64,000 bases of DNA from Ophelia neglecta (taxonomy: Eukaryota), in NCBI GenBank assembly GCA_965285935.1, contig OZ260661.1, forward strand, positions 133,672,001-133,736,000, in the 5' to 3' direction. Shown here piece after piece: positions 4,988-41,700 of this stretch. The notes below the pieces were generated by a model. It was not told the origin of the DNA. It saw nothing but the letters and a program-made list of their open reading frames with translations, and made no database searches. Every line of letters begins with the position of its first letter. The stretch's first letter is position 1. The translations under genes and the position numbers were made by a program.

Positions 4988-7900
4988 ATGGCGGAAAGTT
5001 TACACACCCTTTCTGCATCCTTATTACTGTATTTTTCATGGATTTTATTTGTACCAACATCAGGTAATTTGTTTTAAAAGCATACGATATGCATACACGG
5101 TCAGAGCTTTTATATACCTATCTTATCAGCTATTAGGTGTAAACGCCTACACTGTATAATTTATATCATACACAATTATGTACGTTAGGTGATTGAAAAT
5201 AGTATTGCAGGTGCAGTTTGTGATCCAGAATGGCAACAATACCATGCAAGTTGCTATTTTAAGTCCACTAGGGAAACATCATGGGTTGAAGCCAGATATT
5301 TGTGTATGAACATGGACTCCAATCTCGTATCTATCACAGACCAAGAAGAAAATGACTTTATCAGGCGTACATTGTAAGTGACATTTCATACTACAGTTTT
5401 ACATGTACGAACTTTTTGTATAAGTAGACTTTTAAACAACTGTAGAGAAAACCGTACTATCGTGGATATCAATATGAAGGCTTCACACATACAAAACTTA
5501 GATCTTATACAATAATTTGCATCGAAATATATTGTTTATACCTTGACCAGACTTTTAAGGCTGAAATTGTAACATACAAGTAGTAGTACTAGTAGTAGTA
5601 TCACATGCATGGCTAGAACAATAAGGTGAGTACGTATATATATACAGGGAACCTGCGTTTGTGGTGATCTGTGTATAAGATCACCTGCCCACCAAGGTCA
5701 CTAAATGTTAGGCCAATCCCCATTTATGCCTGTGTTAACCGCCTATTAAGGCAAACTACATAATGTGGTTATTCCAATCCCTTACGTGACCTGACTAGAC
5801 AGGTTTCAATGTATTACTTCACAGTATATAGACTGTGACGCCAACTGACAGGCAGGTGAAAACGCTGTCGAGCAATTGTAAATCATCGAAGGAATGTCCA
5901 TCAACGCTGCTATGATCATGCAAATGAGCAAACGCCGATCTCGCAAGTAGCTTTTGGTTTTATGAACGGAAAATGATTCCTTATCATGGGAGAACTTTTA
6001 GTATCCTTGCAATGTATTCACATCGTTTGTATCCAGGGAGCTTTTTATGCTAAATTAGGGCATTGACTGCCTGTTTTGAATTTGGTGTTATATCAAGAAC
6101 AAAAACGGGAACTTTGTTCTAGCGATTTCTTCTAGAACCGTGTTATAAGTATAAATATAACAATTATTTAAATATCATATCTTCTTATAAAATTAGCCTA
6201 AGCCTGCCGATATCCCCACTTTTATCGTCCCGCCATGACATTCAGATAATAATGATGTGTTAAATGGCATGGCTGCAATGCATGTTTTCTTTATTCCATT
6301 TTACCCCAGTTTATTCAAAAATTGCGATTACTGCCCATTTAAAGACGTTGTCGATCATCTATGTTGTTAGCAGGTTATAGTAACTGAGATTTTAGCTACA
6401 TTAGATTTTGCTTGGTATATGAATAAGAAAGAAACGCCTGTCGGGATTACATTTTAGTGTTGGTATATTTTATAAATTTTAATTCCCCAACCAGTAGTCG
6501 GTATGCACGGCTTCCTGCAAAGAAGTGTTTATTAATGGTTTACACCAACCTATTTGCATCGGGTTATCATGTTACGGGTGGGTTAAGGGTTTGACAAGTG
6601 TGTCAGGGTTCGGTTCAGCAAGGGAACGAGTATTATATTGCCATTGTAAATTGCTACATTTTTTAAAGCGTTAACACAGAAATAGTAGTTTACAACTGTT
6701 AGTCCACTGCCGATAATATACATACCGTCATTGTCCTAAAATATTCACATGTATAACACTCCTTTAGTCGTTTTTATGTAAGACATATGTTGATTTCAGT
6801 GTTGAAATATGCACCGTTAGCACAGAATGTAAAGAACAAACACAAGATGCATGGATTGGATTGTCGAAAATGACAGACCTGTCCGGAAATGTGACACAAC
6901 GACGAATGGACTGGAAATGGGTGGATGGATCCAAATACCAATGGTCTAACTGGGATGGCAGAGCCCCAGTCCCGGATGTGAGGCGTGAACCAGCGGCATT
7001 CTCAGGGAAAGCCCGAATGCAGTACGATGGGAAATGGGCTGACAAGACCCCGAATAACATCAGGTTCATCTGTGAGAAAGAAGGTAACATCATAATTAGT
7101 TATTCTGTGTTATTGTGGTGATTTAACAATGTAACAATAATCGTATCTATTTTTTGATGATCCGAATCAGTTTTGAATAAAGGAGCAACCCAATTCCAGT
7201 TTACCAAACAAGATTTGTTTTATCGTGGAAGTTCTGATGAGACAGCAAAAGTGATGATATTGTGGTAAAAGTGATACATAACCGATGATCTATTTAAAAA
7301 AAATATTTCAGAAATCTGTTCATCTGCACGACGTGTTTTATTTATGGTCTGAAGGCTAAAAAACACGACCGAGACGATAGTACCTTGCATTATACTCTAA
7401 ATTCATGACCTTGGGTATGAAGTGGGCCACTGGTTCATTAAAAGCGCTAGAAGGCTTGCTACCTCACGTTTAAGCGGCAAAGACCAATTCAGATTACCTA
7501 AAAATGGGGATTAAGGGATCTCTTAATATTTGAAGGCAATGAAACTTTTCACTGGAGAAATCTTGTGTAATTCTCCCCGGCCTTGATCTTTTAACAGATC
7601 GAGGAGAATGGTTTTAATTTCGTATGACATTGTAAGCTGTCACAAAATAAACAATTAAAGGTGATGGGATATATCAAAGAAGGTGGTCTTAAGATTGCAA
7701 TATTACACTGCATGATATACGTCCAGACGATAAAGCTTTGGCTTGATGCCAATGCCAGAAGTTCCAATATAAAAATGTCGACCGAATATTTCCATGTCCA
7801 GTGGAAAGATTTACATGAAAATTAGTATACAATCATTTATACGGAGATTGTAAAAAAAGTAGATACTATTTTTATTATTAGTTCACATATTCGCAATTAT

Positions 7901-9251
7901 TGGAAAAAAGAAACTCATTTATAAAACTCGTGTTAAATAAAGAGGACCTTCGCTTTCTGTTCTGCTTGGTATCATAAAGGCTGAAAATTTTTTTTTTGAG
8001 CAACTTAGGTGCTATAATCATATCCAAATCATTTTTTTTTGAAAAAGTTGAAGATTCTATGGTAAAAACTATGCCAATAAGTTTATAGGACAAGGGCCTA
8101 CTCGAAAACCTGTCGAGAGATAAATTTGAACATAGTTGGGTGACATATGGCACGCTTTTAGCGGACAAGAATGGTAATCAGTATGCGACCAATCCGCTGT
8201 TTGTTCTTTCGGTCTCTTTTGCATTTTCAACTTGTGTATTGTATTGTATGTATATATTTGTGTTTAAATAAATAGTTGAAGATGAAAAAATGTATGATGG
8301 ACAATAGATTCATTTGTTAGGTTATAAAATTTACTTGTTGTTTTAAATTATAATAGTAGTAAGATGCAAACGGTTTGCGTCATATTTCGAATTTTAGAGA
8401 CATTGCAGTTATTTCCTTTACTTCGCCAGTGATACAAAACATTTCTATGAACCAGCAATACGAACAACAGTCCGGTATTTAGGCATATAAGAATACATAT
8501 GACTTCCATCACTGCAAACATTATAGGGGAAGTCATAATTAATAAAATAGTTATAATACGTGTTCAATATTTTCAGCTGGGACAAATGTGATGTATCCTC
8601 TGACCCTGACATTTCCGTTTAGTGATGTTACCACACAAAATAATTTGGACCCAGGGCAGTCATCAGTGACTAAAATAGTAACAGAGGATGGCGTAAATTG
8701 TGAGTTTATGTCCAAATAATGCTTTAAAACAGATATTACTTATTTGTCCATGCGTAATTTAATTGAATTAATTAGTTAATAAATGCCATTTTTAATAATG
8801 TCCTATTTTCAGTTTTGATTGTAGTAAGCGTGGCGTTGATTATCATAGGAGTAGTGTTGGCTGTCATGATTGGATTAGGGGTCTGGACGTTAAGGTGAGA
8901 TGCATAAATAGATAGTAAGCAAATCAAACTACATCTCGAATATAAAGCACACATTGTAAATATATTATATTTTTGTGCCTCTCCATCAGAAGAATGAAAA
9001 CACAGAAGGCAGCAGAAAGAAAAGCAGACGAACAAAACTTCTATAACACTGCAGTAGAAAGGAACCAATCAGGTGAAAGTCAAGCCCCTAACAACTACCA
9101 CAATGTAGGAAAGAAGGAACTCTCGTCACACGCGAATACTGACGAAATGAAAAACTACCACGAGAAAGGCATATACGAGGAGCTCCAGGTGAAAGACACT
9201 GGTATGAAATCGGATAGTGATTATGAACGATTAAGCACGTTCGGTATTTAA
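4988..9251 (+). CDS. CTLR1: type I transmembrane C-type lectin-like receptor (329 aa, 6 exons)
   Basis: Exons 4988-5063 (signal), 5211-5373 (CDPEW..SCY..SW.EA..C...LVSI..EENDFI), 6800-7083 (WIGL..W.DGS..W..EP..WAD..FICEK), 8577-8699 (stalk), 8813-8894 (TM FLIVVSVALIIIGVVLAVMIGLGVW), 8990-9251 (tail). All introns are GT-AG, phases are compatible, and the 990 nt are open. Confidence 0.9.
5643..5813. mobile_element. Degenerate Tc1/mariner-pogo-type MITE in CTLR1 intron 2 (paralogous copy 35641-35812)
   Basis: Termini tacagggaacctg...caggtttcaatgta resemble the TACAGTGAAACCTG MITE family at 55.5 and 61.9-62.7 kb. Confidence 0.55.
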
Positions 9252-11991: not shown

Positions 11992-14900
11992 ATGGCGGAA
12001 GGTTCACATACATTTTATGTATTCATATTACTGTATTTGTCATGGAGTATATTTGTGCCAATATCAGGTAATATATCCTCCCAATTATGACATATTCATA
12101 CTTTGTCCGAGCTACCATTTTAACATGTAATATATATATATATTGGTTAAAAAGTTTACATTGTATATCAATTTAAATTGCAATATTGTAAGACTAGTGA
12201 ATGAAAATTATATCACAGGAGCAGTTTGTGATCCAGAATGGTATCCACACAATATGAATTGTTATTATAAGTCCATCAACTTTACATCATGGATGGAAGC
12301 AAACGATATATGCAACACAATGGACTCTCATCTTGTTTCTATAACAGACCCTGAAGAAAATCAATTCATCCGAGACACATTGTGAGTAGTAGTCCACATG
12401 GCATTTTTCTAGATATTACCTTCAATTTGAAAATATATTGCTTATCAGCTACCGATCATCAATATAATGTAAAAGTACGATACCATTGTTTGAATCAATG
12501 AGAGTGTCAAATTAGCTCGCATAATTAGATAACTGAGGCCGAGGAGGATTGCAGCTACAGTCTTGGAATTTCTTGTAAGGTATGAAAACATTTGTTTGAA
12601 TTGAATATTCTTTTTATCACCAAGTTGATGTCCCAAAATAATAAAATTATTTTTACAGTCAAATAAAAAATATAAAGTAGCATGTCGTAAGTAAACATAA
12701 ATGTAATATATGTCAATAAACAAAGTCATAAAAAACAGAAGCACATACGAGGAAAAATCTAGTGTTATTAAATTTAGTGATATATTGTTGATTAACAATT
12801 GTAAGTTTGTTAATATTTAAGGAACTGAGAACTTGTATGTATACACATCCGGTTTATAACTCCCCCTCACCCCCACTCCACTACTAGTAATAAACTCCCA
12901 AATATTGCAGAGAAAGTTTTGTGTTGGAAATTTTTTTTTAGGGGGGGGGGGGGTGTATATTTGCACAGTTATTGAGTGTCGTAAATGAGCAATATACCAA
13001 GTTATATAAGTAATACATACTGCCGAGCAAAGGTAGAGGGCAGTAATTCCCGTTGCCTCGCGATAGCAAACTTTGGAGGAAAACGTTGTCTCAGTGTGAA
13101 AACGCTGACCCGTTTAAAGAGCGTGCTCAAGCGCTATTTTAATTAACCCATGCCACGCAACGTACTTATATAATACCACATTTAAAATTACCAATGAATT
13201 AGTTCAGTTTGAATGTGACATTTTAATCGATGCTGCCCGTTGCATTGGCATCGGTTTAGATATTGCCATGCGCCATTGCACTTAACACCTGATACTGCCT
13301 CTTGCCTTTGTTCTTATCATATGATATTGCTTTTAGCCTTATTTTCTAATATATAATACTGCCTTTTGCCTTTGTACTAAACTTTCTATAACACACGGCA
13401 GTGTCATGTGTACTGAAACTAGGTTAAAAATAAAAATTTGATGTTTTTTTTACTTTTCAGATTATTGGAATCTGGTATAGAAAATTAAATATGTCAAGGC
13501 TGGATATGATTCAATTCACGAATAAGGGGCGGTTTTGCTGTAGCTCAGCGCTGTTTGCCACTGAATGACTGATTTGCCCTTTCTTGACCTGTCCTATATC
13601 TTACCATTTTTCACTTATGTCGTTCAATTGATTTAACGTGTATCGAGTGTGTCCAAACTCTATCCACCTGTCTGTAGTTTTTTGTTGAAAGCATTTATCG
13701 AATTTTATTAATACAGCATCGAGTGTGATATAGCGCAAGGGTGCCACGAACAAAATCATCAGTATTGGATCGGTCTGCAGAAAAATTCTGGTGGATCAGG
13801 AAATCTTACAACTAGGCGTAGCGATTGGAAATGGCAGGATGGTTCTCAATATGGATGGTGGAATTGGAAAACAAATGGAACAATGGCTGAGCAAGAGCCA
13901 AAAGGCCGCAGTGGAAAGGCGCGAATAACATACAATGGTTATTGGGCTGATGATGATAAACTTGATAACGGACGGATCAGGTTTATTTGTGAAATGCCAG
14001 GTACGTTTTAGAGTTCACATGAATGCATCGGTTTAAGTAGTCTCAGCCTGTCGGTCAACAAACAGCTTTTATTCTCTGTTCAATTACTCTTTTAACGGTT
14101 GCTCGATTCAATGTGTGTGATTATTTGTTTCTTTCTTTTCTACTGGAATTTACCCCCCCCCCCCTTATACCGCTTTCCTTCCGAACACTTGGAACCACTA
14201 GGAGGTTATCCTTGGCCCCTATTTTGTTCGTATAATCGCGTTCTGTTTCGAGAGATTACTTTATTGGTGACATAATACCACTCACATTATAATGGGTCAA
14301 TGCAAATATTGATGGGTTATTCGATATGACCTTTGATGAAAACAAATTAGTGCATGACATTGCACATCGTCACCTATACTCTCTCTATACCAAGATTCTG
14401 TGAAAAACGTATGCCTATCAGGTTTAGAAAAATACCCGTGTTATACAAGGGGACGCATAGCTACTCGAACCAGCCTTATCGCAATAAACAGATGGTGGTT
14501 TTAAGCTTTTATATCCCTGTTGACCCATTCAATCGGACAACATTTATTATTTCATTAAATGGATAACGCCATGAACTAATATATATTAATAACTACTCTT
14601 CAATGTTTGTTTAAGGTTTTAAATGAATGTACTCCTGTCTAATAGATCGACATTTTCCACCAGATAAGTCCACTGAAACGACCGCAAATACCCAGAGCAC
14701 AACCCTGGGTACACATGACATACCTGTGACTAACAGTGGTTTGGACGAAATAACTTATTCAGGGACAAACATGAAAGATGATGCAGGTTAAATGTCTTAC
14801 ATTCATTATCATTCCACTGCCATTTAATGTTATCCCCTGTTGCTTTATTTGAATTAAATAATACCAAAACTAATCACCGGCGACATGTTGTTCAAATGTA

Positions 14901-15776
14901 TACAAATGGCTCATCGTATGTTGTTAATTCAAATTGATAATAAACAGAAGCCAACTTTAGTCGAATAGCAGACGTCAATTGCTTAATTTGTATGTCGCCA
15001 CTTCAATTGCGTTCTAATTATGCTCAATCATTCTATTAAAAGTTTTTTATTACCGTATCTGAGAAAATTGTATAATAACCATATTTATTCCAGATAACAC
15101 ATTATACATTGGCGTCGCTGTTGGATTAGTCGTTATAGTCGCTGCACTATTAACAGTAGCAATTATGGTAGTAAGGAGAATGAGGTATATTCCTGTAGAG
15201 TTAATATAATGTGTAGCTACAATTACGTCAGAACAATTTCTTCAAGCAAAAACAAAATAATTTACTAGGGATAATGCCATTGTCATATTGGAGGAAAATT
15301 AACGGCTTCCTTTATTCTGGTTAATAGCTTTGCTTTTATACGTACATATTTTGGTAAATTTTGTATTGAAAGAAAATTGCTAAATATAGTGTTACTATTT
15401 TAGGAAAAGGACTGAAGGTCAGAAAGTCCACCTATACTATAATACAAGCGGGGGCATCATCGTTCAATCAAACCGTCAAGAACCAAATGACTTTAACTGT
15501 GAAAGCGTAGAGTCCAATTATCAAAATATCATGGACGTTTCCACGATAAAAGAACCCCAATCCACTACAGGCAATCACACATACGGTAATATGCCTACGT
15601 ATGATGAGGTTTGTATAAATAAGAGAGATCAGTTGCCAGAGGATAATCACTCGCTAGGCGATATGTGTGCCGTGCCCCACAAGCAGAAAAAAACTCGTTT
15701 TCCTGGGATAGAAGTGGCACGGCTGGATCAGGATGATGGAACGACAGTGATAGACAACAGTGTCTATGGGCGGTAG
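11992..15776 (+). CDS. CTLR2: type I transmembrane C-type lectin-like receptor (~375 aa, 6 exons)
   Basis: Exons 11992-12067, 12219-12381, 13717-14000 (not in ORF track; IECDIAQGC..YWIGL..WKWQDGS..EPKG..WAD..FICEMP), 14646 (or 14664)-14786 stalk, 15094-15184 TM (LYIGVAVGLVVIVAALLTVAIMVV), 15404-15776 tail. The first three exons have the same lengths (76/163/284 nt) as in CTLR1. Confidence 0.88.
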
Positions 15777-20700: not shown

Positions 20701-21459
20701 TTCATGAAAATGTTAAAATGTTTCGATATCTACTTTATGCAGTGGTAAAGATGCTCCTTTTCTTTTCTTCATGGCTACGGCCTTGTAGTAATATGAAAAT
20801 TACTAACTCTTTCTTTATATTACAATTATATTATCACTTAAAAAACCTGCGTATCTATTTATATTCACAATATATGCTTTAATCTAATAATCTGTGTACC
20901 CTGCTCGTTATTAACCGTTATAAAAATTCACATTAAACAACACATTACTGGTTGTCAGTGTATTCAATGCACAACAATGTTATATTTGCACACTGGGCAT
21001 TTACCTAGGTACCCCCCCCCCCCTCCCCATACACCAAACAGCAAACACCTCCCCCCCCCCCACACACACACACCAATACACCCACACACCCACAGACACC
21101 CATGAATATGTGGGGTTAGAAATCTTGCATTAATCAAATGTAATGTAGCTGCTGTAATAAATTGAGATTAATCTGAGGTGTTCACGTTTATTAGTTTACA
21201 CATAACTGCCTGCCTTAAACTACCTGCCCTAAACTTGCCTTTACATTAATAACGCGGAAGTCAGTCGACGGCAAAAAATTGACCATTCACCATTTGAAAG
21301 CCACCAACACACGATGTTTACCAGAGAATGAATATATAATGGCAATATCTATATACTTAGTGGTGCAAGTAGAGTGTTGATTGTTACCGGTAGACGCGAT
21401 TTGACAAGGCGGGTCTATTCCTTGTAGGTCCTGGGAATCTTATAATCGTATATTCGATC

Positions 21460-24400
21460 ATGGCGGAACGTTCACATACATTTTATGTATTCATATTACT
21501 GTATTTGTCATGGAGTATATTTGTGCCGATATCAGGTAATATATCCTCCCAATTATGATATATTAATACTTCGTCCGAGCTACAAATATTACATGTGATA
21601 TATATCTTTGTGAAAAAGTTTACATTGTATATCAATTTACATTGCAATATTGTACGTTTAGTGAATGAAAATTATATCACAGGAGCAGTTTGTGATCCAG
21701 AATGGTATCCACACAAAATGAATTGTTATCATAAGTCCAGCAACTTTACATCATGGTGGAAAGCCAACGATATATGTAACATAATGGACTCCCATCTTGT
21801 TTCTATAACAGACCCAGAAGAAAATCAATTCATCCGAGACACATTGTGAGTAGTAGTCCACATGGCATTTTTCTATGGAAATATATTGCTTATCAGGTAC
21901 CGATTTTCAATATCATGTAAAAATGCGATACCTTGTGTGAAATCAATGAGTGTCAAATTAGCTCGCATAATTAAATAACTGGGGTGGTAGGTGGATTGCA
22001 GTTACAGACTTGGAATTTCTTGAAATGTATGAAAACATTTGTTTGAATTGAATATTCTTTATTACCAAGTTGATGTCCAAAAATAAAAATAAAATTATTT
22101 TTACGGTCAAATAAGAAAGATAAAGTAACATGTCGTAAGTAAACATAAATGTGTTTAATACATGTCAATAAACAAAGTCATAAAGGACAGAAGCAAATAC
22201 GAGGAAAAATCTAGTATTATCAATTCTAGCGATATATTGTTAAATACCTATTGTAAGTTTGTTTATAATAAGGAACTGAGAACTTGTATGTATACACATG
22301 CGGTTTATGACTCCCCCTCACCCCCACTCCACTTCTAGTAATAAACTCCCAAGTATTGCAGAGAAAGTTTTGTGTTGGAAATTTTTGTTGGGGGGATGTA
22401 TATATGCACAGTTATCGTGTGTCGTAAATGAGCAATATACCAAATATTAAAACCCCTCCCCGCCCCCTAAAAGTTCCTTATTTTAATGGGCCGGATTGCA
22501 TTACACTACAGTGTTTGAACCTACGCATTTGCACTTTGCGATTATGCTTTGATTCTGAATTAAAGACATCCTGGGAAAAGGGGGCGAATATATTGGCCTA
22601 CGGTCTGAACGGTCGGTTTTTCAGAGGCGGAATTAACATTCAGGGAGTCCATTTTAGTATCACACAAGAAATAAAAGAAGGTTCAACAGAAAGACTTCAG
22701 ATGGGCCCTTGTAAGAATGGCCCCACGAGAGGGAAGTCAAACAGTTCCAGTCTGGAGAGGTTTAAAACAAAGCTTCGGGAATGCACTGATCCAACCAAGA
22801 GTGTCATTGGATACTGCCCAGTTATTAATGCCTCACCTACAGATTTGTCCACAGTTTACACCTTGCTGAAACCGTCGGTGGAAATGGCACAAAAAGCTTG
22901 GTCAAACAAAAACCATTATAGTTTTTGACCAGGCAATCTATGCATAGGAATTAGTTATTTTGAGAAATCCTCAACAATTTTGTTCAGTCGTTTTGAGGGT
23001 TGCGGTTTCCATATAGGTCTCACGTTCCTGGCAGTTATTAGCAAACGGTTTGGCACTGCAGGATTATCAGACCTTAGGAGACAATCAGAACTTGGAAGTT
23101 TGGGATCAACCAATGGTGTTATAGTTTTTTTTATTGACCTCCGCTTTCCGGAGAGCTTAAGGTGGTACATATAACATAACGTGTTTAACATTATTAGGCA
23201 ATGAACAATATGGTAGGTGTGAGGTTACATATTCAAACGTACAGGAATATAAAATAGGATATTAATTTAGTACAACCTCGAATCAAGGAGCTGTCACATG
23301 AGTATAGTGGTCTCTTTAACCCTGCTAGTAGGCCTAGGCCTATACATTATATTTTTATAGACGAGCCATACCACCTACGGGAATACATAGAGAAGAGGGT
23401 ACCGAGAATTAGCTCTGTCCCCTTAGAACCAGAAATGACCATGGCAAGGAAAGCTAGAGTCAACATGTCGTAAGGTGCGCAGGGATCTATCGCATGGTCT
23501 CTTAGGTACTGTATGAGCGTGTCTCTGCTAGATCCTGTCTCCTGGCACACCCACAAGAGATGGGAGAGAGTGTCACCAGCTTCACCACATGTCGGACAGA
23601 CATCCCCAGTATTTGTCTGCACATGTCTCACTGTATGCTCGTAGAGGCCTGACGTCTTAGTGGTAAGGGCCATCACTATTTGTGCTCCTTTTATCTGCCT
23701 CATTGTTTTGGCGATTTTCCACATGCCTATTAGTTCATAGTCCGGACAGGAGTCTCTGAAAATATCCAGATTTTGATATGACAGGCATTCCAGTTTCCAA
23801 AGCATAGTCTGACATGTGCGAACGGTATTGCGGGTATGATTCTTCCACATCCCCTTGGACGGTGTTGTTCTTGTGTGCAGCCATGATCTAAGAGTGTCCT
23901 CCAAGCCGTACTTCACATAGGTATCTACCATGACACCTGATGTGCTCTCAATTGCTTCAATGCCGACAATGTCCCACTCGGTTAGTGCGCGAATGACCAA
24001 TGACCGGTAGATTGAGCTAGCAGGGAGAGCCAGCAGATCTCTCATTAATCTCAAGCGTCTGAGGTCAATGTAGTTTTCCACCGACCACCATCCCAGGGGA
24101 GCCAGGGCAGCAGGGTTCGCTGTGTGTCTCGGAAGACCTTGTATGCGTTTAGCTAATTGTCTGTGTTCAGTTTCAAGGCACATGATATGTTTTCTAGAGA
24201 GATGAATCACCTCTAGGCCGTACAGCATTCCAGGGACAACAATAGCCCAGTAAAGTCTGGAGAGAAGGGGTGTATTGTACCGACTCACTGCCTTGCCAAC
24301 GCCTAGCAGAGAATTCATTGATTTCTTTCCTCTATCTACGCGCTCTCTGAGGGCTGCTTGTTTCAGGCTTCCTGGTGGGCATAGAGGTACGCCGAGGTGT

Positions 24401-27400
24401 GATGTAGCTTGCTTCTGTGGGATGCTTTCACTACCCAGCATATATTGTACTGGTCTCGTTTCTTCTTTGCCGAACACCAATAATTCACACTTAGAAGCGT
24501 TAAAAGTCAGTTTCCATCTAGTGCCATACGAATAGGCCATCTTGCACAGTTCCTGCAAGGTCTTCGCATGTAGGGCTACTATTGTGATGTCATCCGCGTA
24601 GCCCGGGCAGGCGGAGTTTAGGCCGTAGGCAATAGAGCCTAGACCGCTATTCTCTATCAGTTTGAAGAGGCCGTCGTACATGTATGTGAATAGCAGCATG
24701 GAAAGGAGCCCTCCTTGGTGTAGACCTTGGCCGTGTGAATACCACTCTGATGTGCCTCCGGCCACACGAACCGCGCTCTCAAAACGGCGGTACCACGATA
24801 GGAGGATGCTCCATAGTTTCCCTCTAAATCCCAGGTTATAATTTCGGTAGAACAAACCAGAGAACCACACCGTGTCGAAGGCTTTACGAGCATCCAGCAT
24901 AGAGATATACACGGTCTGGCCCCGGGAACGGTGATATTCTATGGCCCCCCGTAAGTGCATTGTTGTATTGAGACTGGAGCAGCCCGCCTGACATGCCGCC
25001 TGCATGGGGCTCACAAGGTGCTTTCCGTCCGCCCATTTAACCATCCTTTGCATGAGCACACCCTCATACAACTTGCAAATGATGGTCAATAGAGTTATTT
25101 TACGGTAACTGTCTTTGAGCGTCGGGTTCTTTCCACCACGTTTATAAAGCGGAATGTCGATTCCCCTTCTAAAGATTACAGGCACATACTCAAGCCTAGT
25201 AATGGCTGTGAATATGAAGGTGAGGATTTCCGCCAGCTCTTTACCGCCGTGTTTGAAGTGTTCGGGAGCAATGTTATCCCACCCGCCAGCCTTACCAGTC
25301 CTTAGCCGTGTGATACAGTGGGCGACCTCATCTTCCGAGATTGGAGGTCCCAGGATGTTATCATCTTGCTGGGGAGAAAGTTGGTCATAAAGCTCGACCC
25401 TAGATTCAATTAGAGAATGAAATGACTGATCAAAGTCCTTGTTTTCCTTGGGTTGACTGAGGTCGAAGAAGTAGTCTCTCCATTCCCTGCGGATATCATC
25501 GGGGTTGGTTACTATCTGGCCACTTTCAGATTGAAGGATAGTGTTTTTGTTTTCATGCCCACTTTGGCGGCGATTATTCACAAGGCGCCAGAAAAAATTT
25601 CGGTCTACGTCGTTAGTGCGAAGGATATCCTCCTGTTCTTTTTCCTCGCTCTCGTGATCGGCGCAGCGTCTCTCTCTTCTATATAGTCGTTTGCTCTCCT
25701 CGAAGAACGCCAATACGAGCCCACAAAATGCCGATAGAAGGTATGCAGCGACTTAAATGGCACTCGATGTTTGGCTCTCTGCTCGGGAGCAACAGTATGA
25801 AATGAATACCAAGGTTGTAAATAATCTACCAGCTGATAGCTCATACATCTCTGTTCCAAAAGATGTGCAACAGGACCTACAGGTGGTACAACAAAAAGGA
25901 AATTAAATGTTTGCCAGCTTCGTTCAGCCCTGATTAGTAAATGAATGGGTCAGTTTCTTTGACAAGATTCCTGAATTGAACTCAAGAGTTTCAACGATGT
26001 CATAAAAATATAACATGTCAAGCACAACAATCAGGTTTTTATCCTCAATGTTGATCCTAGTCTATCTGCTCGGTTAGTCATTATGGCTCAAAACCGAAAA
26101 TGAACTTGAAGCCTATCATACGGACTTTGACCACTTCCGTGGTCGCTTGCAACTGTCGACGGGGGCAATCCAAAACAAACAAGGCGACATTTGAAAACTT
26201 AGATTTAATAAGTTGAATATGTTCGAACCACCGAAGTTCGGATTAATAATTACACCAAGGAATCTTTTCAATCGTTCTCCACTGATACAAACATCACAAG
26301 AAGAAACAGTACGTCGATAATCAATGCAAATACAATATATTGAGGTGTTTTAACATAGAGTTGTATTGAGTTGAGTTGTTTGGGTTTTTACGTGGCTTTC
26401 AACACTTATCGGTCATATCGCCACGGTGCCTACTTGTGACAGTGGGCTCAATGCCCTCTTTAGAGTACTGCCTCACTGGAGTACCTGCCGTAGACACTAG
26501 CCAGGGAACCCCACCCAGTCACATTATACTGTGTAGCCCAGTCCTGATACTACCCCCGAAATACCGGGCGCCTAGCAGGGGAGCTATCAGTACCTATTTT
26601 TGGGTCTAGGGTTTGGAGCGATCGAGATTTGAACCCCGATCTCCCACTTGCGAGGCGGACGCTCTTACCACTCGGCCACGCATTGGTGTCATTCAAGAAG
26701 ATTACCATGTTCTACATTCAGAGTTTCAATCAACGCATCCAAATTTTTATCAATAACAAAAACCTTTGTATTATCGGTAACAAGTACAGGAAATAAGAAC
26801 GATTATAAATTAATCATATCGTTAATATATAAAAGAAATAGTTAAGGCCCCAGAAGCGACCCAGGTAGTACACCGCAGGAAATAGGTCTGCTCTCGGAGG
26901 TAGTTTTGAGATAAGACTCATATTAGGATCAAATGATCGAATAATAACTGAGCCATGCCTGAGCAACTCCCCTTATTCTATATTTATTAACAGTGTTGAA
27001 TGGTTTCGAAAAATCTCAAAAATACCACAAGGACCATGTCTACATCCATTTGAAATTTTGTCAAGAAGAATGAAATTTTTACTGCAATTAATAAATTGGT
27101 GATTATTTAAGATCTAACAAACGGCGTGACTTCACACTGTCTCTACTACCTTATTCACTGCCGATTACCCTTAACTGTACACATTGTAAGACTGGCTATA
27201 AATTACAATGCGATGGGAAATAACGCCCTGTTAGAAGGACTTTTAGCAGAGGATAATTGTATAGACTTAAAGTCACGGGGTAAATAGAAAGTGGCGCCGG
27301 TCCATACATCTTAAAGTGGGTGACTAGGGTATATCTGAATACGTGTTTCCTTACTTATAGTATACAGGAGAAACACAATCGAGAAATCAAATAGCAATAT

Positions 27401-30400
27401 GTTGACCGTAGAAAGATAAGGCATCATTAATTTTACAATTACTTTTCAGATTTATGTTGGAGGATTTGTTATATATTATAATTTACATACGTATTTAGCT
27501 ATTAATTATCTCTAATTTTGATGAAAAACTGCCTTCGGATTTAATGATACCTAATTAATAGACCAAATTTATATTTATATTACCGGCTGGCGACCCAGAA
27601 TGGTATAAATTCAAAGCGACTTATCATACTCCCGGGATCTGATGATCATGTATGTATGTACGTATGTATGTAATTCATTTATTTTCTTGAAACAAGCCAT
27701 GACGCCAACAATAGCTAAGAGCCGTTTGGTGTTGGACGCCCTTTGCCACTACAGCCAATATAGTTTTTGATTATGTTATTACATCTATATCTATAGAAAA
27801 GTATTTTCGCACATAGCAAATGTATATAAACCAAACTGGAAATAATTTCCACAAAAAGTACTAAATTATAATCACAAAACAGAAGCTAATAATAAAATAA
27901 GTCGAACATATCAGCAAAATAAGCAAATCTATCTAGTCACAGGCAGTGCTTATTGCCTAATATGTAACCTTAAGTATATATAAAGAATATGATTACAGCA
28001 TGTATTTTCATACAGCAGACATGCATATAGGCCAATTGAAATGATAATTGTCATATTATAATACATTCATGCTTGAATCACAAACCAAAGCAAACACAAA
28101 GAAACAAACGATGGGATGATGCTAGGCAATTCCGTATCAGGGAATTCTTTCTCGCTTCTATCCGACTATTTAATACGCGAATGTTTTCTATTTCAGTATC
28201 GAGTTATGCACTGATGACAGAGCATGTCAGGAACAAACAAAGGATTTATTGATTGGGTTAATTAAAACAACAGACCTTACAGGAAATTCGTCACAACGAC
28301 GAAGTGGCTGGATGTGGGAAGATGATTCCAAATACGATTGGTTTAACTGGTATGGAGATGACTCGGTCGAGGACATGGACCGTGAACCCAAAGGTTTCAC
28401 ATGCAGAGCTGTAATGATGTACGATGGAACATGGGCTGACAAGAACCCCAAAGATTTCAAATTCATTTGTGAGAAAAAAGGTAATCTCGTAACGCCTTAT
28501 ACTTTCTTAACTTGACGCTTCTATGTTGATCGGGAGTTGCCTTGACTCAATTACACTATCCATGTGTTACCGGGAAGACAAAGTATCGTATAAGGCATCC
28601 ATACTTAGATTTGTTGGTTTCCAAACTCGTGAGGTTTTTTATTTGAGTTTCGCCGCATACGCTTATGTTGGCATGTCAACCTTTTTTCTTGTTTTAAGCA
28701 ATAGTACCCGTTATCCGAGTTGTCCAGTGGCACGCAATTTTTTTTTACAATTTGTTATAGGAATCTACATCAAATATTTTTTTATATTTCAAACCTGGAT
28801 GAAAACTATTAAGAAATACAGTTTAATCAAACAAGATGTATCTGTTCCTGTCTGCCGCTATGTCCATTGCCCTAGCAACTTCTACCGTTTCTAGTTAGTC
28901 TTAGCCGATTTAACCCATAAGTCAAAACAACTGGTTTATTTTTCATACTTTCCCAAGCTAGTCTTCTATGAAACAAGACAAATTATGGAGTCAACAGCCT
29001 TTTGGGAGAAGTATTGATTATTATTGTTGAAAGTAGTACAAAAACGATTTTAGCCCTTGAACAATACTTAGTTGATCGATTTTTATGGCGTTGGTTCAAA
29101 AACTTTTTCCGCTTAAACAACCAGGTCGGTCGGTCGGATAAAGGAAAAATAAACAGCAGTGAAAGTGCTGGTTGGGTAGGTTGGTTGGGTAGAACTTATC
29201 CACTTGCTTAACAATTAATTTTCTGTATCTTGCTAACTATGTCCCTGCATAGATGCAAATCTGTACAGTTACGTTATATATAAAACTCCGTAACTGAGAG
29301 ATTAAGGAAATGGAGCGAGACGGGATAGCGGACAGGAGACGGATAATCAATGATTTTAGCAACAATTGGAAGAAAGTAAAAGGTTTTGGGCCGACTAAGG
29401 GAAAGAAAATCATAAATTTCTTTACTGCCGTGAGAAGGTTTTGAGAAAAGGCCAAATTTATTTTTGGTTCATCCTTTGTTTAAAAAGTCGTCGGGTGAGG
29501 AAACCGTGTTTAAGAAACAAAAAATCCTATGGAGTCGTATTGTTCTTTGTTACCTGTCATCTTCCCTTCCTTTATTTGTTGTTTGGAGAGCATTGCATTA
29601 ACATTCAACGTGCACACATGTCCTTAATTCTTTCTCTTTTATTGACTTCTTGGAGCAGCCAAATATGATCTGACAGAAGCTCCTATTTCAACGAAATCGC
29701 CCTTCGACGAAGTGACAGCAACCGGACATAGGCCATCGATCACAACCTTTGGCGTATCGGACACCAACCAGGGTCCTTATAATTTTACATACACAAAGGG
29801 ACAAAATGTTTTTTTGAGTTCATGAGTCATTACCCCAATCTAGCATGTTTCTAGCGTTATTGTTGAAAGAGTATTTAAAAAGTGATCTTGTGGAAATCCA
29901 GCCAATCTAAAATCACTGTTGATGCTTGTCTTCAAGCAATTCGCCTCAAATAATAATTTGTTTACACTAAACGTATATCGGTCTAATGCATCAGCTATTA
30001 CACCTTCTTATAACTCTTTTTTCCAGACCCCTCTCTTTACATTGGCATCGCCGTGGGATTGGTATTGCTTATTGGTTTAATATTAATTACTGTAGCCACT
30101 TTGTTTAGGAGGAAAATTAGGAGGAGGTATTTTGTTTTGGATTAAATAATATCTAGTCTCAATGGTTTGTCCTATTGTCACTTTAATGACAGATGTGCGT
30201 TTGTTTTTATTTATCATGAAATTGGAATCCACCACACCCTCATAAAGAACGTAGTTCGAATTTTGCTTAAGCCCTTCTGATATTTTAGGAAAAAGGACGA
30301 GAATCAGGAACGCAACATTTATTATAATACGAGAGAAGGAATGACAGAACAAATTGGGAAGCATGAGAGAAATGTACCGAATCCCTGTAATGATTTGGAC

Positions 30401-30520
30401 ACGGTAGAATCGAATTATGAGGAACTCATTGGTGTTTCTTCAAATGGTGATGAAGCATATCCTACACAGAACAATAATCACGTATATTGTATTGTGCGTG
30501 CCCAAAATGAGCGACAATAG
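21460..30520 (+). CDS. CTLR3: chimeric C-type lectin-like receptor with truncated tail (possibly a pseudogene)
   Basis: Exons 21460-21535 and 21683-21845 (CTLR2-like); 28197-28480, ~29656 onward (stalk, splice sites unclear), 30027-30126 TM and 30289-30520 (CTLR5-like). A 14-nt deletion relative to CTLR5 gives TAG at 30518-30520; the ancestral end VENSVYGD* is still visible to 30643. WIGL is changed to LIGL. Confidence 0.7.
22450..26240 (+). mobile_element. Degenerate DNA-transposon transposase-like relic (tentatively Academ-like), interrupted by a LINE
   Basis: Fragments IGYCPVINASPTDLSTVYTLL, VFDQAIYA*, GFH..FLAVISKRFG.AGL.DL, STNGV (to ~23124) resume after the LINE as IRAHKMPIEGMQRLKW (~25712). 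Family assignment is from memory of these motifs, not from a search. Confidence 0.55.
23125..25710 (-). mobile_element. 5'-truncated LINE with uninterrupted RT ORF (23347-25713, 788 codons)
   Basis: RT motifs KAGGWDNI, YRKITLL, LDARKAFDTV, GLHQGGLLS, YADD; C-terminal CPTC-x8-H-x4-C knuckle; no endonuclease domain; 3' UTR ends in AATAAAAAAAA at ~23125-23135 on the minus strand. Confidence 0.95.
26352..26688 (-). mobile_element. tRNA-derived SINE, copy 1
   Basis: Minus-strand head has an A box (TGGCCGAGTGG) and B box (GGTTCAAATC); the body matches the copies at 46.3 and 59.1 kb; simple-repeat tail. It is absent at the paralogous position in CTLR5 intron 2 (~39940). Confidence 0.85.
26700..27100 (-). 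mobile_element. Old LINE RT fragment in CTLR3 intron 2
   Basis: Paralogous to 39950-40330; decayed F.KPF.TV and GV..GS.LG.LLFL motifs on the minus strand. Confidence 0.6.
27650..28110 (-). mobile_element. Probable 3' end of a non-LTR element inserted in CTLR3 intron 2
   Basis: Interrupts gatgatcatg|ggatgatgctaggc, which is contiguous in CTLR5 (~40870). The minus-strand end has AATAAA followed by a (CATA)n tail. Confidence 0.6.
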
Positions 30521-31699
30521 TCAAACTGTGAGTGAATTTTACGCGGTGCCCCACAAGCGTAATGGCCGATGTGAACCCGAACAGGATCGGATGAACAGGA
30601 CACCGACAGAATGCTAGTGGAGAACAGTGTGTATGGAGATTAACCTAAACATTTTTTCCGAACTGAAATATGATATTGTCATCTTGTAATAAAATACTCC
30701 ATTATTTTTAAAACTATTTTCAAAGCAAATCGCTGTATGATTTTGATAATAAATCGCTTGTTCTAATTCAACCCACTCGTGAAAAACCTTTGTCCACGCC
30801 GAATATAGTCTAGCTATATTTATAGATGGAACTGTAATTCTAATAACTGTGTTCCTATGTTCCTATGGCCCAAAATGATGCATCTTAATAACAGACGAGA
30901 AAAAGCTGCACTGCTAAGCAGCTGTTTTTAGCGATGCCATTTTTATATCGTTATATGTTCAGCCAATTTTACAAATTTCGCAATCATCGCAAAATTAACC
31001 TGTATGCAATCTCCCTAAGATGGCGCACGAACTGCCGAAAAGGGGCATTCACAACTTCGACACAATGTGCAAATTTTCAGTACAGAAATGTCAGATCGAG
31101 AAGGCCAAGTATATTGGGGCTTTTGCTATCGTGGGTTTGTGTGACACTCAGAAGTGTGTAGATATGTAGAGCCGTAGACCTATAAGTAAATACGTAACAC
31201 CAAAAGAATTTGAAATCAAGGGATGGTCTTTTTTCCAGGCACATCGATACAGGAGGGTTTGTGTCATTATTTCTTTGAAAGACACATCGAGCTCACCAAA
31301 GTGGCTTTTGACACCGCAGAAAGTATTAAACTACGTTCAAGCGTGAAAGGGTAGGCTAGTCTTGGGGCGGAACAGACGTGTTCTGGTCGCGAGTGGCCAT
31401 TCTTGGTATTTTAGGTTGCCAAAACACAAATAAAACATATCTACAAATGACTACGACCGGGAGAAACTTCGGGAACTGTCATATGGTATTTGGATTGCTA
31501 AAGGTGGACACGTTTATTACTTTTTGGCGTTTTTTTTCTCGTAGAATCTGCTCAGAACAACATTATATCACCCACTGTTACTTCTAGGACGAACAAATCC
31601 CTATTCACTGCAATACACAAGTGTGAAAGCCACCAAAGCAGTTCATTTGGGCATAATACCCTTGTCACCCTACTTGGTGGGGGAGTATAAAGACTGTTG

Positions 31700-34378: not shown

Positions 34379-34560
34379 CTAGAACAATGCCACATCACCC
34401 AAGATAAGAATGTTCTCATAAGTGAGGGGAACACTGTCGAGAAAGTAAAAAAAAAGAAAAGCATTTACAATAAATACGTTTATTATTGATGGAGGCGGGC
34501 GATATACGGTGTAGGTTCTGACTGCATTATTGCTACATTGATTGAATATATTCAAACAAA
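34379..34560 (-). mobile_element. Short LINE endonuclease relic upstream of CTLR4 (shorter copy at ~4470-4560)
   Basis: Translation VYRPPPS...FLDSV...ENILILGD matches APE-domain motifs. Confidence 0.55.
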
Positions 34561-34986: not shown

Positions 34987-37107
34987 ATGGCGGAAAGTTC
35001 ACACACCCTTTCTGCATCCATATTACTGTATTTTTCATGGATTTTATTCGTACCACCATCAGGTATTTGTCTTAACATCATACGATATGCATACACCGTC
35101 AGAGCTTTCATATACCTATCTTATCAGCTATTAGGTGTATACGCCTACACTGTATAATTTATATCATACACAATTATGTACGTTAGGTAATTGACAATAG
35201 TATTGCAGGTGCAGTTTGTGATCCAGCATGGCAACAATACCATGCAAGTTGCTATTTTAAGTCCACTAGGGAAACATCATGGGTTGATGCCAGAGATTTG
35301 TGTATGAACATGGACTCCCATCTCGTATCTATCACAGACCAAGAAGAAAATGACTTTATCAGGCGTACGTTGTGAGTGACATTTCATACTACAGTTTTAC
35401 ATGTACGAACTTTTTGTATAAGTAGACTTTTAAACAACTGTAGAGAAAACCGTACTATCGTGGAAATCAAGATGAAGGCTTGACACATACAAAACTTCGA
35501 TCTTATACAATAATTTGCATCGAAATATATTGTTTATACCTTGACCAGACTTTTAAGGCTGAAATTGTAACATACAAGTAGTAGTACTAGTAGTAGTATC
35601 ACATGCATGGCTAGAACAATAAGATGAGTACGTATATATATACAGGGAACCTGCGTTTGTGGTGATCTGTGTAATAAGGTCACCTGCCCACCAAAGTCAC
35701 TAAATATTAGCCCAATCCTCATTTATGCCTGTGTTAACCGCCCATTAAGGCAAACTACATAATGTGGTTATTCCAAACTATTGCGTGACCTGACTAGACA
35801 GGTTTCAATGTATTACTTCACAGTATATAGACTGTGACGCCAACTGACAGGCAGGTGAAAACGCTGTCGAGCAATTGTAAATCATCGAAGGAATGTCCAT
35901 CAATGCTGCTATGAATATGCAAATGAGCAAACGCCGATCTCGCAAGTAGCTTTTGGTTTTATGAACGGAAAATGATTCCTTATCATGGGAGAACTTTTAG
36001 TATCCTTGCAATGTATTCACATCGTTTGTATCAAGGGAGCTTTTTATGCTAAATTAGGGCATTTACTGCCTGTTTTGAATTTGGTGTTATATCAAGAACA
36101 AAAATGGGAACTTTGTTCTAGCGATTTCTTCTAGAACCGTGTTATAAGTATAAATATAACAATTATTTAAATATCATATCTTCTTATAAAATTGGCATAA
36201 GCCTGCCGATATCCCCAATTTTATCGTCCCGCCATGACATTCAGATAATAATGAGGTGTTAAATGTCATGGCTGCAATGCATGTTTACTTTATTCCATTT
36301 TACCCCAGTTTATTCAAAAAACGCGATTACTGTCTATTTAAAGACGTTGCAGATCATCTATGTTGTTAGCAGGTTATAGTAACTGAGATTTTAGCTACAT
36401 TAGATTTTGCTTGGTATATGAATAAGACAGAAACGCCTGTCTGGATTACATTATTTGTGTTGGTATGTTAAATAAATTTAAATATTAATCTTTTTAAATC
36501 CCAAACCCGTAGTGCATTATGCACGGCTTCCTGCACAGAACACACATATTTATCAATGGTTTACACCAACCCGTCTATTTGCATCGGGTTTTCATGTTAC
36601 GGGTGTGTTAAGGGCTTGACAAGTATATTAGGGTTCGGTTCCGCAAGGGAACGAGTACTATATTGCCATTGTAAATTGCTACATTTTTTAAGCGTCAACA
36701 CAGAAATAGTAATTTACAACTGTATGTCCACTGCCGATAATATACATACTGTCATTGTCCTATAATATACACATTTATAACACTCCTTTGGTCTTTTTTA
36801 TGTATGACATATGTTGATTCCAGTGTCGAAATATGCACCGTTAGCACAGAATGTAAAGAACAAACACAAGATGCATGGATTGGATTGTCGAAAATGACAG
36901 ACATGTCCGGAAATGTGACACAACGACGAATGGACTGGATATGGGTGGATGGATCCAAATACCAATGGTCTAACTGAGATGGTAGTGCCCCAGTCCCGGA
37001 TGTCAGGCGTGAACCAACGGCATTCACAGAGAAAGCCCGAACACAGTACGATGGGAAATGGGCTGCCATGACCCCAAATAACATCAGGTTTATCTGTGAG
37101 AAAGTAG
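34987..37107 (+). pseudogene. CTLR4: truncated pseudogene copy of CTLR1
   Basis: Exons 34987-35062, 35209-35371 and 36824-37107 and their introns are nearly identical to CTLR1. TGG>TGA nonsense change at 36975-36977. Homology ends at ~37620 and no stalk, TM or tail exons follow. Confidence 0.88.
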
Positions 37108-38725: not shown

Positions 38726-41700
38726 ATGGCGGAAGGTTCACACACATTTGATGTATTCGTATTACTGCATTTGTCATGGATCTTATTTGTGCCACAATCA
38801 GGTAATGTGTGCTCGGAATTACGAGCTTTCATAAATTATATCAGCCTTTATGTGGAGACCCTTACTTAATGTTTAAATTGACATTAAACTTTGCTACGTT
38901 TTGTAAATGAAAATTATATTGCAGTAGCAGTTTGTGATTCAGAATGGCATCAACATAATGGAAGTTGTTACTTCAAATCCAGTAGTATTAAATCATGGGC
39001 AGATGCAAAGTCGTCGTGCATGCATCTTGATTCCCATCTCGTATCTATCACAAGCCAAGACGAAAATATGTTCATCCGAACAACATTGTAAGTATAATTT
39101 CAGGTGACATATTTGTTCCGCTAACACATTTCAGCATTTATAAGTTAAAGTAATTACCAATTGTGGCGAAAGCCGTGAGAGCTGTGTTGTGAATTAAACT
39201 GCTGGTTGTACTGTATTGTATGTTTACATATCAAATAGTATGCATTGAAATAAATTGTATATATGATGACGTTTATTCAGGAGTGTTAAGGTTGGAATAT
39301 TCTTGATTTGAAATATAGCAGCGTCAAAATGACTAGTACTTTAGCTGCAGTAGTGTTTACTCTTAATGCATAAAAGCGCCATTTTTTATTCTCAGGATAA
39401 TGATACATTAAACCTCAACAGATATTACAGCATGTTCTTAGCATGCACATAAAACAAGTCTTAAATGTTGGTTTATACACAAACCCAATTATTTGCGCCG
39501 GGCTTCTACGTTTGGACATGCAGTATGGTATTCATAAGCAACGGTCAATTATTTATTTCGAGCCGACTTAATGGACTGTCGTTGAATTATGTTTCTACAT
39601 TGTCTTCCATTTATCTACTCCTGTTTTGTTTAAAAAACCTATACCTATACCTAGGTTAATGTCTACTAGAAGATCCATAAAATCAAAGAATAATGTAATT
39701 AAATGCTGCCATAAATTTCCCCTTGAATTTTTTAAACTTATTTTGGCAAACGGTATTAATTAAGAACGTAAGATCATATGAAATTCAACGTCCAAAGAAT
39801 TATTTATATATAATAAAAGAGTCCAAAGAATAATTATACCGAGGAATCTTTCCAATTGTTCTCAACTGATATACACATCAAAGGATATATTCCGTCGATA
39901 TTCAATGTAAACTACAATATATATTACGTTTTTTAACATAGAATCATTGAAGAAGATTAACCTTTTCTACATTAAGAGTTTCAATCAACGAATCCAAATT
40001 ATTATCATCTATAAAAACGTTTGTATCATCGGTAAACAGTACAGGAAATAAGGCCGATTATAAATTAATCATATCGTGTATATATAACAGAAATAGTAAA
40101 GGCCCCAAAATCGACCCAGGTAGTACACCGCAGAAAATAGGTCTGCTCTCGGAGGTAGTTTTGAGATATGACTCATATTAGGATCTAATGGTCGAATAAT
40201 TACTAAGCCATGCATGGGCATTCCCCTTATTCTGTAATTATTAACGGTGTCAAATGGTTTCGAGAAATCTCCAAAATACCATATTCCCATCCAGAAGAGC
40301 ATTTGAAGTTTTGTCAAGAAGTATGATATGAAATTTTTACTGCAATTAATAAATTGGTGATTATTTAAGATCCAACAAACCGCGTGCCTTCACACTGTCT
40401 CTACTACCTTATTCACTGCCGATTTCCCTTAACTATACACATTGTAAGACTGGCTATAAATTACAATGCGATGAGAAATAACGTCCTGTTAGAAGAACGA
40501 TTAGCCGAGGATGAATGGATAGACTTAATGCCCGGGTAAATAGAAAGTGGCACCGGTCCATACATTTTTAAGAAAGCGACTAGGGTATACCTGAATACGT
40601 TTTTCCTTACTTATAGTATTTAGGAGAAACACAATAGAGAGAGCAAATAGCAAAACGTTGACCGCAGGGAGATTTTTCACATTATCGTTGGATGATTTGG
40701 TGAAATGTTATAATATCATACGTTTTAGCTTTCAACATTCTTTAATTTTAAGAGAAACTGCTTGCGGTATTAACATTAACTACTAAATCAACCAAATTTA
40801 TATTTATATTATCGGCTAGCCACCTAGGATGGTATAAATACAAATCGACTTATCATACTCCCGTGAAATGATGATCATGGGATGATGCTAGGCAATTCCG
40901 TATCAGGGAATTCTTTCTCGCCTCCATCTGACTATTTTACACGCGACTTTTTTTTATTTCAGTATCAAGTTATGCACTGATAGCGGACAATGTATGGAAC
41001 AATTACAGGATTTATGGATTGGGTTAACTAAAACAAGAGGCCTTGAAGGAAATTTGTCACAACGACGAAGTGACTGGATGTGGGAAGATGGATCCAAATA
41101 CGATTGGTTTAACTGGTATGGCAATAACTCAGTCGATGACATGGACCGTGAACCCAAGGGGTTCACAGGCAAAGCTGTAATGATGTACGATGGGACGTGG
41201 GCTGACAAGAACCCCAGTAAAATCAAATTCATTTGTGAGAAAAAAGGTAATATCATAACGCCTTATGCTTTCTTATCTTGACGCTTCGATGTTAACTCAA
41301 TTACACTCTCCATATGTTTCCGGGAAGACAAAGTATCGTATAAGGCGTCCATACTTTGAATTTTTGGTTTCCAAACTAGTGAGGTCTTTATTTGAGTTTC
41401 GCCGCATACGCTTAAGTTGGTCTGTCAACCTTTCTTCTGGCTTTGGCAATAGTCCACGTTATCTGTGTTGTCCAGTGGCACGTACAGTTTTGCGCAATTT
41501 GAATATAGAAATCTAGATCAAATCAATTTTTGTATTTCCAACCTGGATAAAATCTAAGAAGAAATGTAGGTTTGTATATTGGAGGAGGCTCCTACCGGTC
41601 CGGCAACTCGTGACTGCAGCTATATTATTGAGTGGTGACTGAAAAACCTGTCTTCACATACAAGAATCTGTCTCCTACTAAGAGAAAGAACATCATAAAT

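Follow-up and report, generated by a model that had tools for sequence, protein, structure and literature searches.

The + strand of the window (the whole 64-kb stretch of DNA analysed here) carries five copies of one gene between 4988 and 42968, found by six-frame motif scans and self-comparison. We think it slightly better than even that these copies, CTLR1 to CTLR5, are a lineage-specific tandem set of type I CTLD signalling receptors that lack canonical lectin chemistry, carry an extra local disulfide, have two tail outputs and evolve by gene birth, death and exchange. With its introns and mobile-element frames, the window looks like animal genomic DNA; most 2-kb blocks are at 33-45% GC. 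The gene structures are predicted six-exon GT-AG models built from the sequence, in which AG/GT junctions set off a leader, the first and second halves of the CTLD, a Ser/Thr-rich stalk, a membrane helix and a tail (Table 1). Three models are open (CTLR1, 329 aa; CTLR2, 369 aa; CTLR5, 371 aa), and the stalk donor sites are uncertain in those of CTLR3 and CTLR5. Among the five copies counted in the earlier note, CTLR4 is a pseudogene with an in-frame TGA in exon 3 (36975-36977) and with no stalk, membrane or tail exon found. Elsewhere in the window, a short interspersed repeat recurs at 26376-26688, 46278-46474 and 59098-59389 (copies 75-81% identical), one copy interrupting the CTLR5-like part of CTLR3 intron 2, and a repeat of ~190 bases has four copies, two of them adjacent, that are 71-86% identical (55492-55683, 61876-62710). 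Rfam gave 0 matches in the 64-kb window.

Table 1. Predicted CTLR exons, landmarks of the CTLR1 domain and other elements of the window.
Feature	Position	Strand	Remark
CTLR1 exon 1, hydrophobic leader	4988..5063	+	putative signal peptide, from sequence
CTLR1 exon 2, N-terminal CTLD half with C0, C0', C1	5211..5373	+	Pfam Lectin_C E 7.4e-06
CTLR1 exon 3, C-terminal CTLD half	6800..7083	+	284-nt AG..GT exon; Pfam Lectin_C E 3.6e-05
CTLR1 exon 3 landmarks	Cys 6810 and 6828 (Cx5C), WIGL 6852, NVT 6888, EPA 6987	+
CTLR1 exon 3 landmarks, 3' part	Lys at C2 position 7008, WAD 7035, C4 7071	+
Paralogues of CTLR1 exon 3 (6800-7083)	13717-14000, 28197-28480, 36824-37107, 40963-41246	+
CTLR1 exon 4, Ser/Thr/Pro-rich stalk without Cys	8577..8699	+
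CTLR1 exon 5, transmembrane helix without charged residue	8813..8894	+
CTLR1 exon 6, cytoplasmic tail, two YxxL 12 residues apart	8990..9251	+
CTLR2 gene	11992..15776	+	open 369-aa model
CTLR2 exons	11992-12067, 12219-12381, 13717-14000, 14664-14786, 15094-15184, 15404-15776	+
Second reverse-transcriptase element, fragmented	18609-20365	+	RVT_1 at 19209-19619; between CTLR2 and CTLR3
CTLR3 mosaic gene	21460..30643	+	322 aa, tail shortened by 11-nt gap near 30500
CTLR3 CTLR2-like exons	21460-21535, 21683-21845	+
Reverse-transcriptase frame, 801 codons, probably LINE-like	23350..25752	-	RVT_1 E 1.5e-23; in CTLR3 intron 2, within the switch stretch
CTLR3 CTLR5-like exons	28197-28480, 29659-29772, 30027-30126, 30289-30643	+
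Two frames, 139 and 213 codons, without Pfam match	31878-33582	+	between CTLR3 and CTLR4; by eye like a decayed retroelement start
CTLR4 pseudogene	34987..37107	+	exons 34987-35062, 35209-35371, 36824-37107
CTLR5 gene	38726..42968	+	open 371-aa model
CTLR5 exons	38726-38801, 38925-39087, 40963-41246, 41962-42078, 42329-42428, 42593-42968	+
DDE_1 transposase-like frame	63460-63873	-

Judged by sequence, the CTLR proteins belong to the long form of the CTLD superfamily. Pfam Lectin_C matches both domain halves of CTLR1 (27.1 bits for exon 2 and 24.9 bits for exon 3, with a cut-off of 22.6), CTLR2 exon 3 falls below that cut-off at 17.4 bits, and no match was obtained for exon 3 of CTLR3 or CTLR5 searched alone. 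The core motif WIGL is present in four of the five copies and reads LIGL in CTLR3. An Atlas search with exon 3 returned generic Lectin_C clusters, and an exon 3 profile run against solved chains found only SRCL/collectin placenta 1 at E<=0.01. For a model of the CTLR1 exon-3 half-domain (pLDDT 59), every match listed by Foldseek was a CTLD, the best at E 5.9e-03 and none at E<=0.001; the model of one relative, P0009 (pLDDT 68), has a CTLD-like order of strands and helices and compares with CTLDs at E 3.5e-06, a TM of 0.3-0.4 and an rmsd of 6-12 Å. Because both structure models are too poor to place disulfides, the pairing given here rests on the counting of cysteines.

Each spliced CTLD has six cysteines (29, 40, 57, 83/84, 89/90 and 171). 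Aligned to named EPN/WND domains, Cys 29 and 40 occupy the N-terminal C0-C0' positions and Cys 57 and 171 the outer C1-C4 positions in all five copies, and both pairs would be bonded (numbering follows PMC9630629, also our source for the hemITAM definition). The inner C2 and C3 cysteines are missing from every copy when these are aligned to reference domains and relatives, as the earlier note had observed. The Lys of GKA fills the C2 column, and what the note gave as GKA throughout is EKA in CTLR4. A seventh, unpaired Cys of CTLR3 (149 in the domain, 28402 in the window), which the note had placed nearby, stands one residue ahead of that column. The remaining motifs are as the note described them: EP is found in all five copies with A, K or T as the changed third residue at the EPN position, WAD replaces WND in four copies and WAA in the fifth, CTLR4, and the loop after WIGL keeps a sequon in all five. 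A misalignment of EP was considered and rejected: relatives that retain C2-C3, which also set the C2 column, place EP in the same column, so that it marks the true EPN position.

Site 2 for Ca2+ in CTLDs has five side-chain ligands, namely the Asn and Glu of EPN, the Glu before C2, and the Asn and Asp of WND. Two of the five are left in the CTLR domains, the Glu of EP and the Asp of WAD, and one of five in CTLR4; Ser or Thr replaces the Glu two positions before the C2 column. None of the marks of a Ca2+-dependent CRD (EPN/QPD, Glu before C2, WND) was found intact, and by these motifs the CTLR domains are not canonical Ca2+-dependent CRDs. Since C2-C3 is gone and the Asn of EPN, the Glu two before C2 and the Asn of WND are all replaced, site 2 is probably inactive, and with just two of five ligands remaining, canonical Ca2+-dependent sugar binding is unlikely. 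The ligands are probably protein or otherwise non-canonical.

It is a real possibility, if clearly short of even, that the CTLRs still serve as pattern-recognition receptors for glycans or microbes, through a site that is remodelled or needs no Ca2+, as in many bivalve and shrimp lectins. EP and W-x-D are retained in all open copies despite exon identities of 42-76%, and there are precedents: SPL-1/2 lack the canonical site yet bind GlcNAc/GalNAc, and LPS and bacteria are ligands of CgCLec-HTM (PMC12842671), while Ca2+-independent binding of sulfated carbohydrates is reported for LLT1 and Clr-b (PMC4041007). Odd-motif bivalve lectins, including CgLec-4E, are moreover listed as Ca2+-dependent, the motif being no predictor of a need for Ca2+ (PMC12842671), which counts against the reading that we favour. 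Set against the glycan alternative is the loss of three of the five site-2 ligands; the conserved EP and W may be structural.

How unusual are these domains? The earlier note had taken both the disulfide loss and the motif changes to be rare, and had said that its reading would fall if the pattern proved common in described invertebrate lectins; for these two features it did. In a nematode survey, 24.35% of CTLDs have the C1-C4 bridge alone (PMC5297725, Table 3), and in mouse Clr-b, which has outer and N-terminal bridges only, the fold is still the classic one and NKR-P1B is bound (PMC6218473). Two reviews report this loss across CLEC2 (PMC4041007; PMC3819593), and one domain of DEC-205 shows no Cys at the C2 column. 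The inner pair is conserved yet not obligatory across the superfamily and, because CTLDs often drop it, the cysteine pattern alone carries little weight. As to the sugar site, oyster CgLec-4E has EPA/WHD and many WxD forms occur among bivalve lectins (PMC12842671, Table 4), WAD having 0 occurrences in that paper, and a shrimp lectin has an EPK motif (PMC5379193). The oddities of the CTLRs in disulfide loss and sugar-site motifs are thus mostly ordinary for the family, and the note was accurate in observation and over-rated rarity. Less ordinary are the extra Cys pair in a lengthened alpha2-beta2 linker, the two unrelated tyrosine tails and the mosaic CTLR3. A limited literature search, covering few subscription papers, turned up no account of a Cys pair in the alpha2-beta2 linker, which does not imply its absence from print.

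The tails fall into two classes. Those of CTLR2 and CTLR5 align with a score of 132 (best of 500 shuffles, 57), and the CTLR1 tail scores 30 and 33 with them, at the shuffle mean; on these alignments CTLR2, CTLR3 and CTLR5 form one family and CTLR1 is non-homologous to it. The stalk and helix exons of CTLR1 are, like its tail, unrelated to those of CTLR2/3/5. No Cys was found in the four stalks and no charged residue in the four membrane helices. Nine motif tests were made on the tails, and their shuffle p values are uncorrected. The tandem YxxL of CTLR1 stands out under a looser x6-12 pattern (p=0.003). The CTLR2 tail has three YxN (p=0.009), and a terminal NxxY is shared by CTLR2 and CTLR5 (p ~0.02), the latter also bearing YxN and YxxP. 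The ITIM pattern [ILVS]xYxx[ILV] has one match each in CTLR1, 2 and 3 and none in CTLR5, which is chance level (p 0.07-0.19). YxN binds Grb2. NxxY is a general PTB-binding motif (PMC4985636). A canonical ITAM in CTLR1 was rejected, as its spacer of 12 lies outside Yxx[IL]x6-9Yxx[IL], x6-9 being the consensus spacer used for Hydractinia Alr (10.1101/2022.03.04.482883). Pfam gave nothing credible in three tails, and Atlas no usable match with the CTLR5 tail. The cluster fits the definition of paired activating/inhibitory receptors (PMC3533184) only partly: it is small, its CTLDs are 51-90% identical and there are two tail classes, and no activating form (a strict ITAM, or a short tail with a charged helix) was found in it.

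CTLR3 is a mosaic, CTLR2-like in its 5' part and CTLR5-like in its 3' part, and intron DNA is the main basis for saying so. The stretch 20983-22443 is 84.6% identical to CTLR2, with no CTLR2 match past 22443, and four blocks within 26245-30651 are 81-84% identical to CTLR5; the switch lies in 22444-26244, within intron 2, which splits the CTLD. The exon 2 peptide is 89% identical to CTLR2 and 57% to CTLR5, and that of exon 3 is 42% and 76% identical, respectively. Exons 1-2 reject a grouping of CTLR3 with CTLR5 (AU p=0.0003); exon 3 prefers it (bootstrap 95), with CTLR2+3 not rejected (p=0.094). The two halves differ from their partners by dS 0.15 and 0.14, and this near-equal divergence fits one exchange event. 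In the tail, CTLR3 shows 6-, 11- and 4-nt gaps relative to CTLR5 (30463-30584), and the 11-nt gap puts the rest of the tail out of frame, so that YxxP and the terminal NxxY are lost; it may be fixed, an allelic variant or an error of assembly. CTLR4 is a partial duplicate of CTLR1 (34483-37626; 90% nucleotide identity over 2843 columns). Values of dN/dS for the CTLD are 0.19-0.56 in eight of ten pairs, the other two being saturated, and the ratio for exon 3 of CTLR3 and CTLR5 is 1.02 over 94 codons (significance not assessed). The hybrid gene, together with the extra Cys pair and the two unrelated tails, suggests a fast-evolving, birth-and-death recognition cluster; hybrids, pseudogenes and tail swapping have been described for NK receptor clusters (PMC1193534).

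By analogy with such clusters, a role in immune or self/non-self recognition is most likely. The CTLR2 and CTLR5 tails, with adaptor-type YxN and NxxY and no significant ITIM, would also suit non-immune surface receptors for adhesion, gamete or larval recognition, or uptake, their tyrosine motifs serving trafficking or growth-type signalling; we regard this as unlikely, since tandem duplication, hybrids, pseudogenes and tail swapping make up the pattern described for immune clusters (PMC1193534). Distinctly unlikely, too, is the fuller proposal that the locus is an invertebrate counterpart to the NK gene complex: a new CTLD subfamily whose members are type I receptors, recognise proteins and bear opposing tails, with recombination in the domain-splitting intron exchanging half-domains to yield new specificities, as in CTLR3, and the extra disulfide stabilising the seam between exons 2 and 3.

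The extra Cys pair deserves separate consideration. The Cx5C that the earlier note reported ahead of WIGL is present in all five copies (ahead of LIGL in CTLR3), and lies where 7-10 residues are inserted, relative to named EPN/WND domains, between helix alpha2 and WIGL; an insert of ~10 residues after WIGL bears the sequon, and 5-9 additional residues precede EP. Both new cysteines are invariant in the four open copies, which is weak evidence alone because invariance is shared by 32 of 94 first-row positions. The five copies were rejected as independent evidence, the pattern being one inherited event. In a mannose-receptor-like background of 13 regex-cut domains from five named proteins, none has two Cys among the 20 residues that precede WIGL, and all 13 have at least two between WIGL and the last Cys. 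As the other members of the six-Cys set are assigned to C0-C0' and C1-C4, Cys84 and Cys90 would pair by elimination. Such a bridge joins residues six apart and so cannot replace the C2-C3 cross-link; a structural replacement was therefore rejected in favour of a local loop.

An exhaustive profile search found 40 proteins at E<=0.001, five of them at E<=1e-10. We scored 28 relatives (28 matches of <=200 aa plus P0022, minus one without the W column; the other 11 were left out), in which neither inner Cys is present in 14, C2 only in 4 and both in 10. Where the inner pair is broken, 7 of 11 rows have a Cys pair ahead of WIGL, against 1 of 7 where it is intact. This comparison uses non-independent rows, drops ten of the 28 relatives as too short ahead of WIGL and includes fragments whose N-termini may be intron-derived; the link between the two features is not significant (Fisher p=0.066). 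The spacing of these pairs runs from x3 to x8 and is never x5, so that of the cysteine pattern for which the note proposed a profile search, C2-C3 loss and pre-WIGL pairs recur in relatives and the exact x5 spacing appears local to the CTLR cluster. The loop sequon is present in just 6 of 26 relatives. A Cys pair inside the beta2-beta2' insert is found in 7 of 10 rows with an intact inner pair vs 3 of 16 others; P0015, P0019, P0029, P0032, P0033 and P0037 keep C2-C3 and have this pair at the CTLR sequon site. P0001, the top match by summed score only, is a 1028-aa protein with seven CTLD stretches that lack C3 and have other extra cysteines. An exon-3 tree with 32 rows leaves 21 of its 29 inner branches without resolution and is too weak a basis for counting C2-C3 losses.

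The varied inner and extra Cys pairs among relatives point to the CTLR cluster being one branch of a wider subfamily in which loops are elaborated and disulfides mobile. The relatives P0002-P0038 share with the CTLRs the beta2-beta2' insert and the short EP-C2 loop, many of them ending just past the last Cys motif, and the full-length P0022 is likewise a type I single-CTLD protein, although it retains C2-C3 and has no extra Cys pair. The note's claim of a distinct subfamily holds up in this wider form, the CTLRs and relatives being divergent, with a long beta2-beta2' insert ending RRxxWxW, an extra Cys pair and a short EP-to-C2 loop. Searches for named close relatives gave weak negatives: none was found by word-indexed homologue searches, a 4-copy profile had 0 matches among 1203 longer candidates, and a 33-row profile had three among 8000 scored candidates, none of them a named close relative. 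A 25-row profile had 23 matches, most of them multi-domain mannose receptors whose scores add up over their domains.

Could the new cysteines instead bond between chains and dimerise the receptors? This idea, which is compatible with the other readings, gains from the cysteines following helix alpha2, through which KACL, CD69 and Clr-g dimerise (PMC3819593), and from stalks that lack Cys. We consider it improbable, however, as the cysteines come in pairs spaced x3 to x8 in relatives, as expected of a loop staple, and the half-domain model puts both, with low confidence, in short strands (2-4 and 10-12).

That the CTLRs are ordinary Ca2+-dependent mannose or galactose lectins, as the Pfam Lectin_C match and the best solved sequence matches (sugar-binding CTLDs, e.g. 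SRCL) might suggest, is highly improbable with EPN/QPD, the Glu before C2, WND and C2-C3 all altered. We give equally little credence to the odd features being the decay of a dying cluster, for which the CTLR4 pseudogene, the frameshifted tail and unpaired Cys of CTLR3 and its exon 3 dN/dS could be cited, given three complete open models, domain dN/dS <0.6 and equal losses in 14 of 28 distant relatives.

On the reading that we favour, lineage-specific signalling receptors without canonical lectin chemistry, each domain would remain folded as a CTLD and contain three disulfides, C0-C0', C1-C4 and the new Cys84-Cys90, the last stapling the residues inserted between alpha2 and beta2. The variable long loop is predicted to make up, together with the glycosylated beta2-beta2' insert, a surface that binds protein or acts without Ca2+. 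Receptors would cluster on binding their ligand, the tail tyrosines would be phosphorylated and SH2/PTB proteins recruited, and the two tails would give different outputs from related ectodomains, the set being diversified by duplication, pseudogenisation and exchange across intron 2. Precedents are Clr-b, a protein binder of normal fold whose canonical disulfides are those of the CTLRs (PMC6218473), and oyster CgCLec-HTM, which has a C-terminal membrane helix and signals via a hemITAM and Syk (PMC12842671).

Among known systems, Clr-b, Clr-g and LLT1 of the NK gene complex resemble the CTLRs in losing the inner disulfide, keeping the outer and N-terminal ones, having a non-canonical sugar site and being encoded by clustered genes. 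However, they are type II and the CTLRs type I, and only the CTLR side has the extra alpha2-beta2 Cys pair and long inserts. The exon 3 profile gave no sequence evidence of special kinship to CLEC2/Clr among solved chains at E<=0.01, and the likeness is likely convergence. The CTLRs are not NK-complex group V proteins, as their order is leader-CTLD-stalk-helix-tail rather than that of a type II protein (PMC3819593) and their stalks lack Cys. Oyster CgCLec-HTM and CgCLec-TM1 are, like the CTLRs, invertebrate single-CTLD membrane receptors with tyrosine tails (PMC12842671; PMC13027682); CgCLec-HTM shares the C-terminal membrane helix and is set apart, by its description, by QPS/WHD and a hemITAM (PMC12842671). 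Nematode C1-C4-only CTLDs are alike in disulfide loss as described (PMC5297725), and nothing indicates that they also have the CTLR inserts, architecture or extra Cys pair. Within 38 kb the CTLR locus combines duplication, a pseudogene, tail replacement and a hybrid domain, a compact example of receptor diversification. Its evolutionary analogues are Hydractinia Alr and the vertebrate paired-receptor clusters, which likewise comprise tandem single-pass receptors with tails more divergent than ectodomains and show exon shuffling, hybrids and pseudogenes. Alr and KIR use Ig domains, whereas the CTLRs use CTLDs and have neither a strict ITAM nor a short-tail charged-helix form. If the CTLR tails do signal in opposite directions and the ligands are proteins, the Ig-fold recognition clusters of invertebrates would gain a lectin-fold counterpart.
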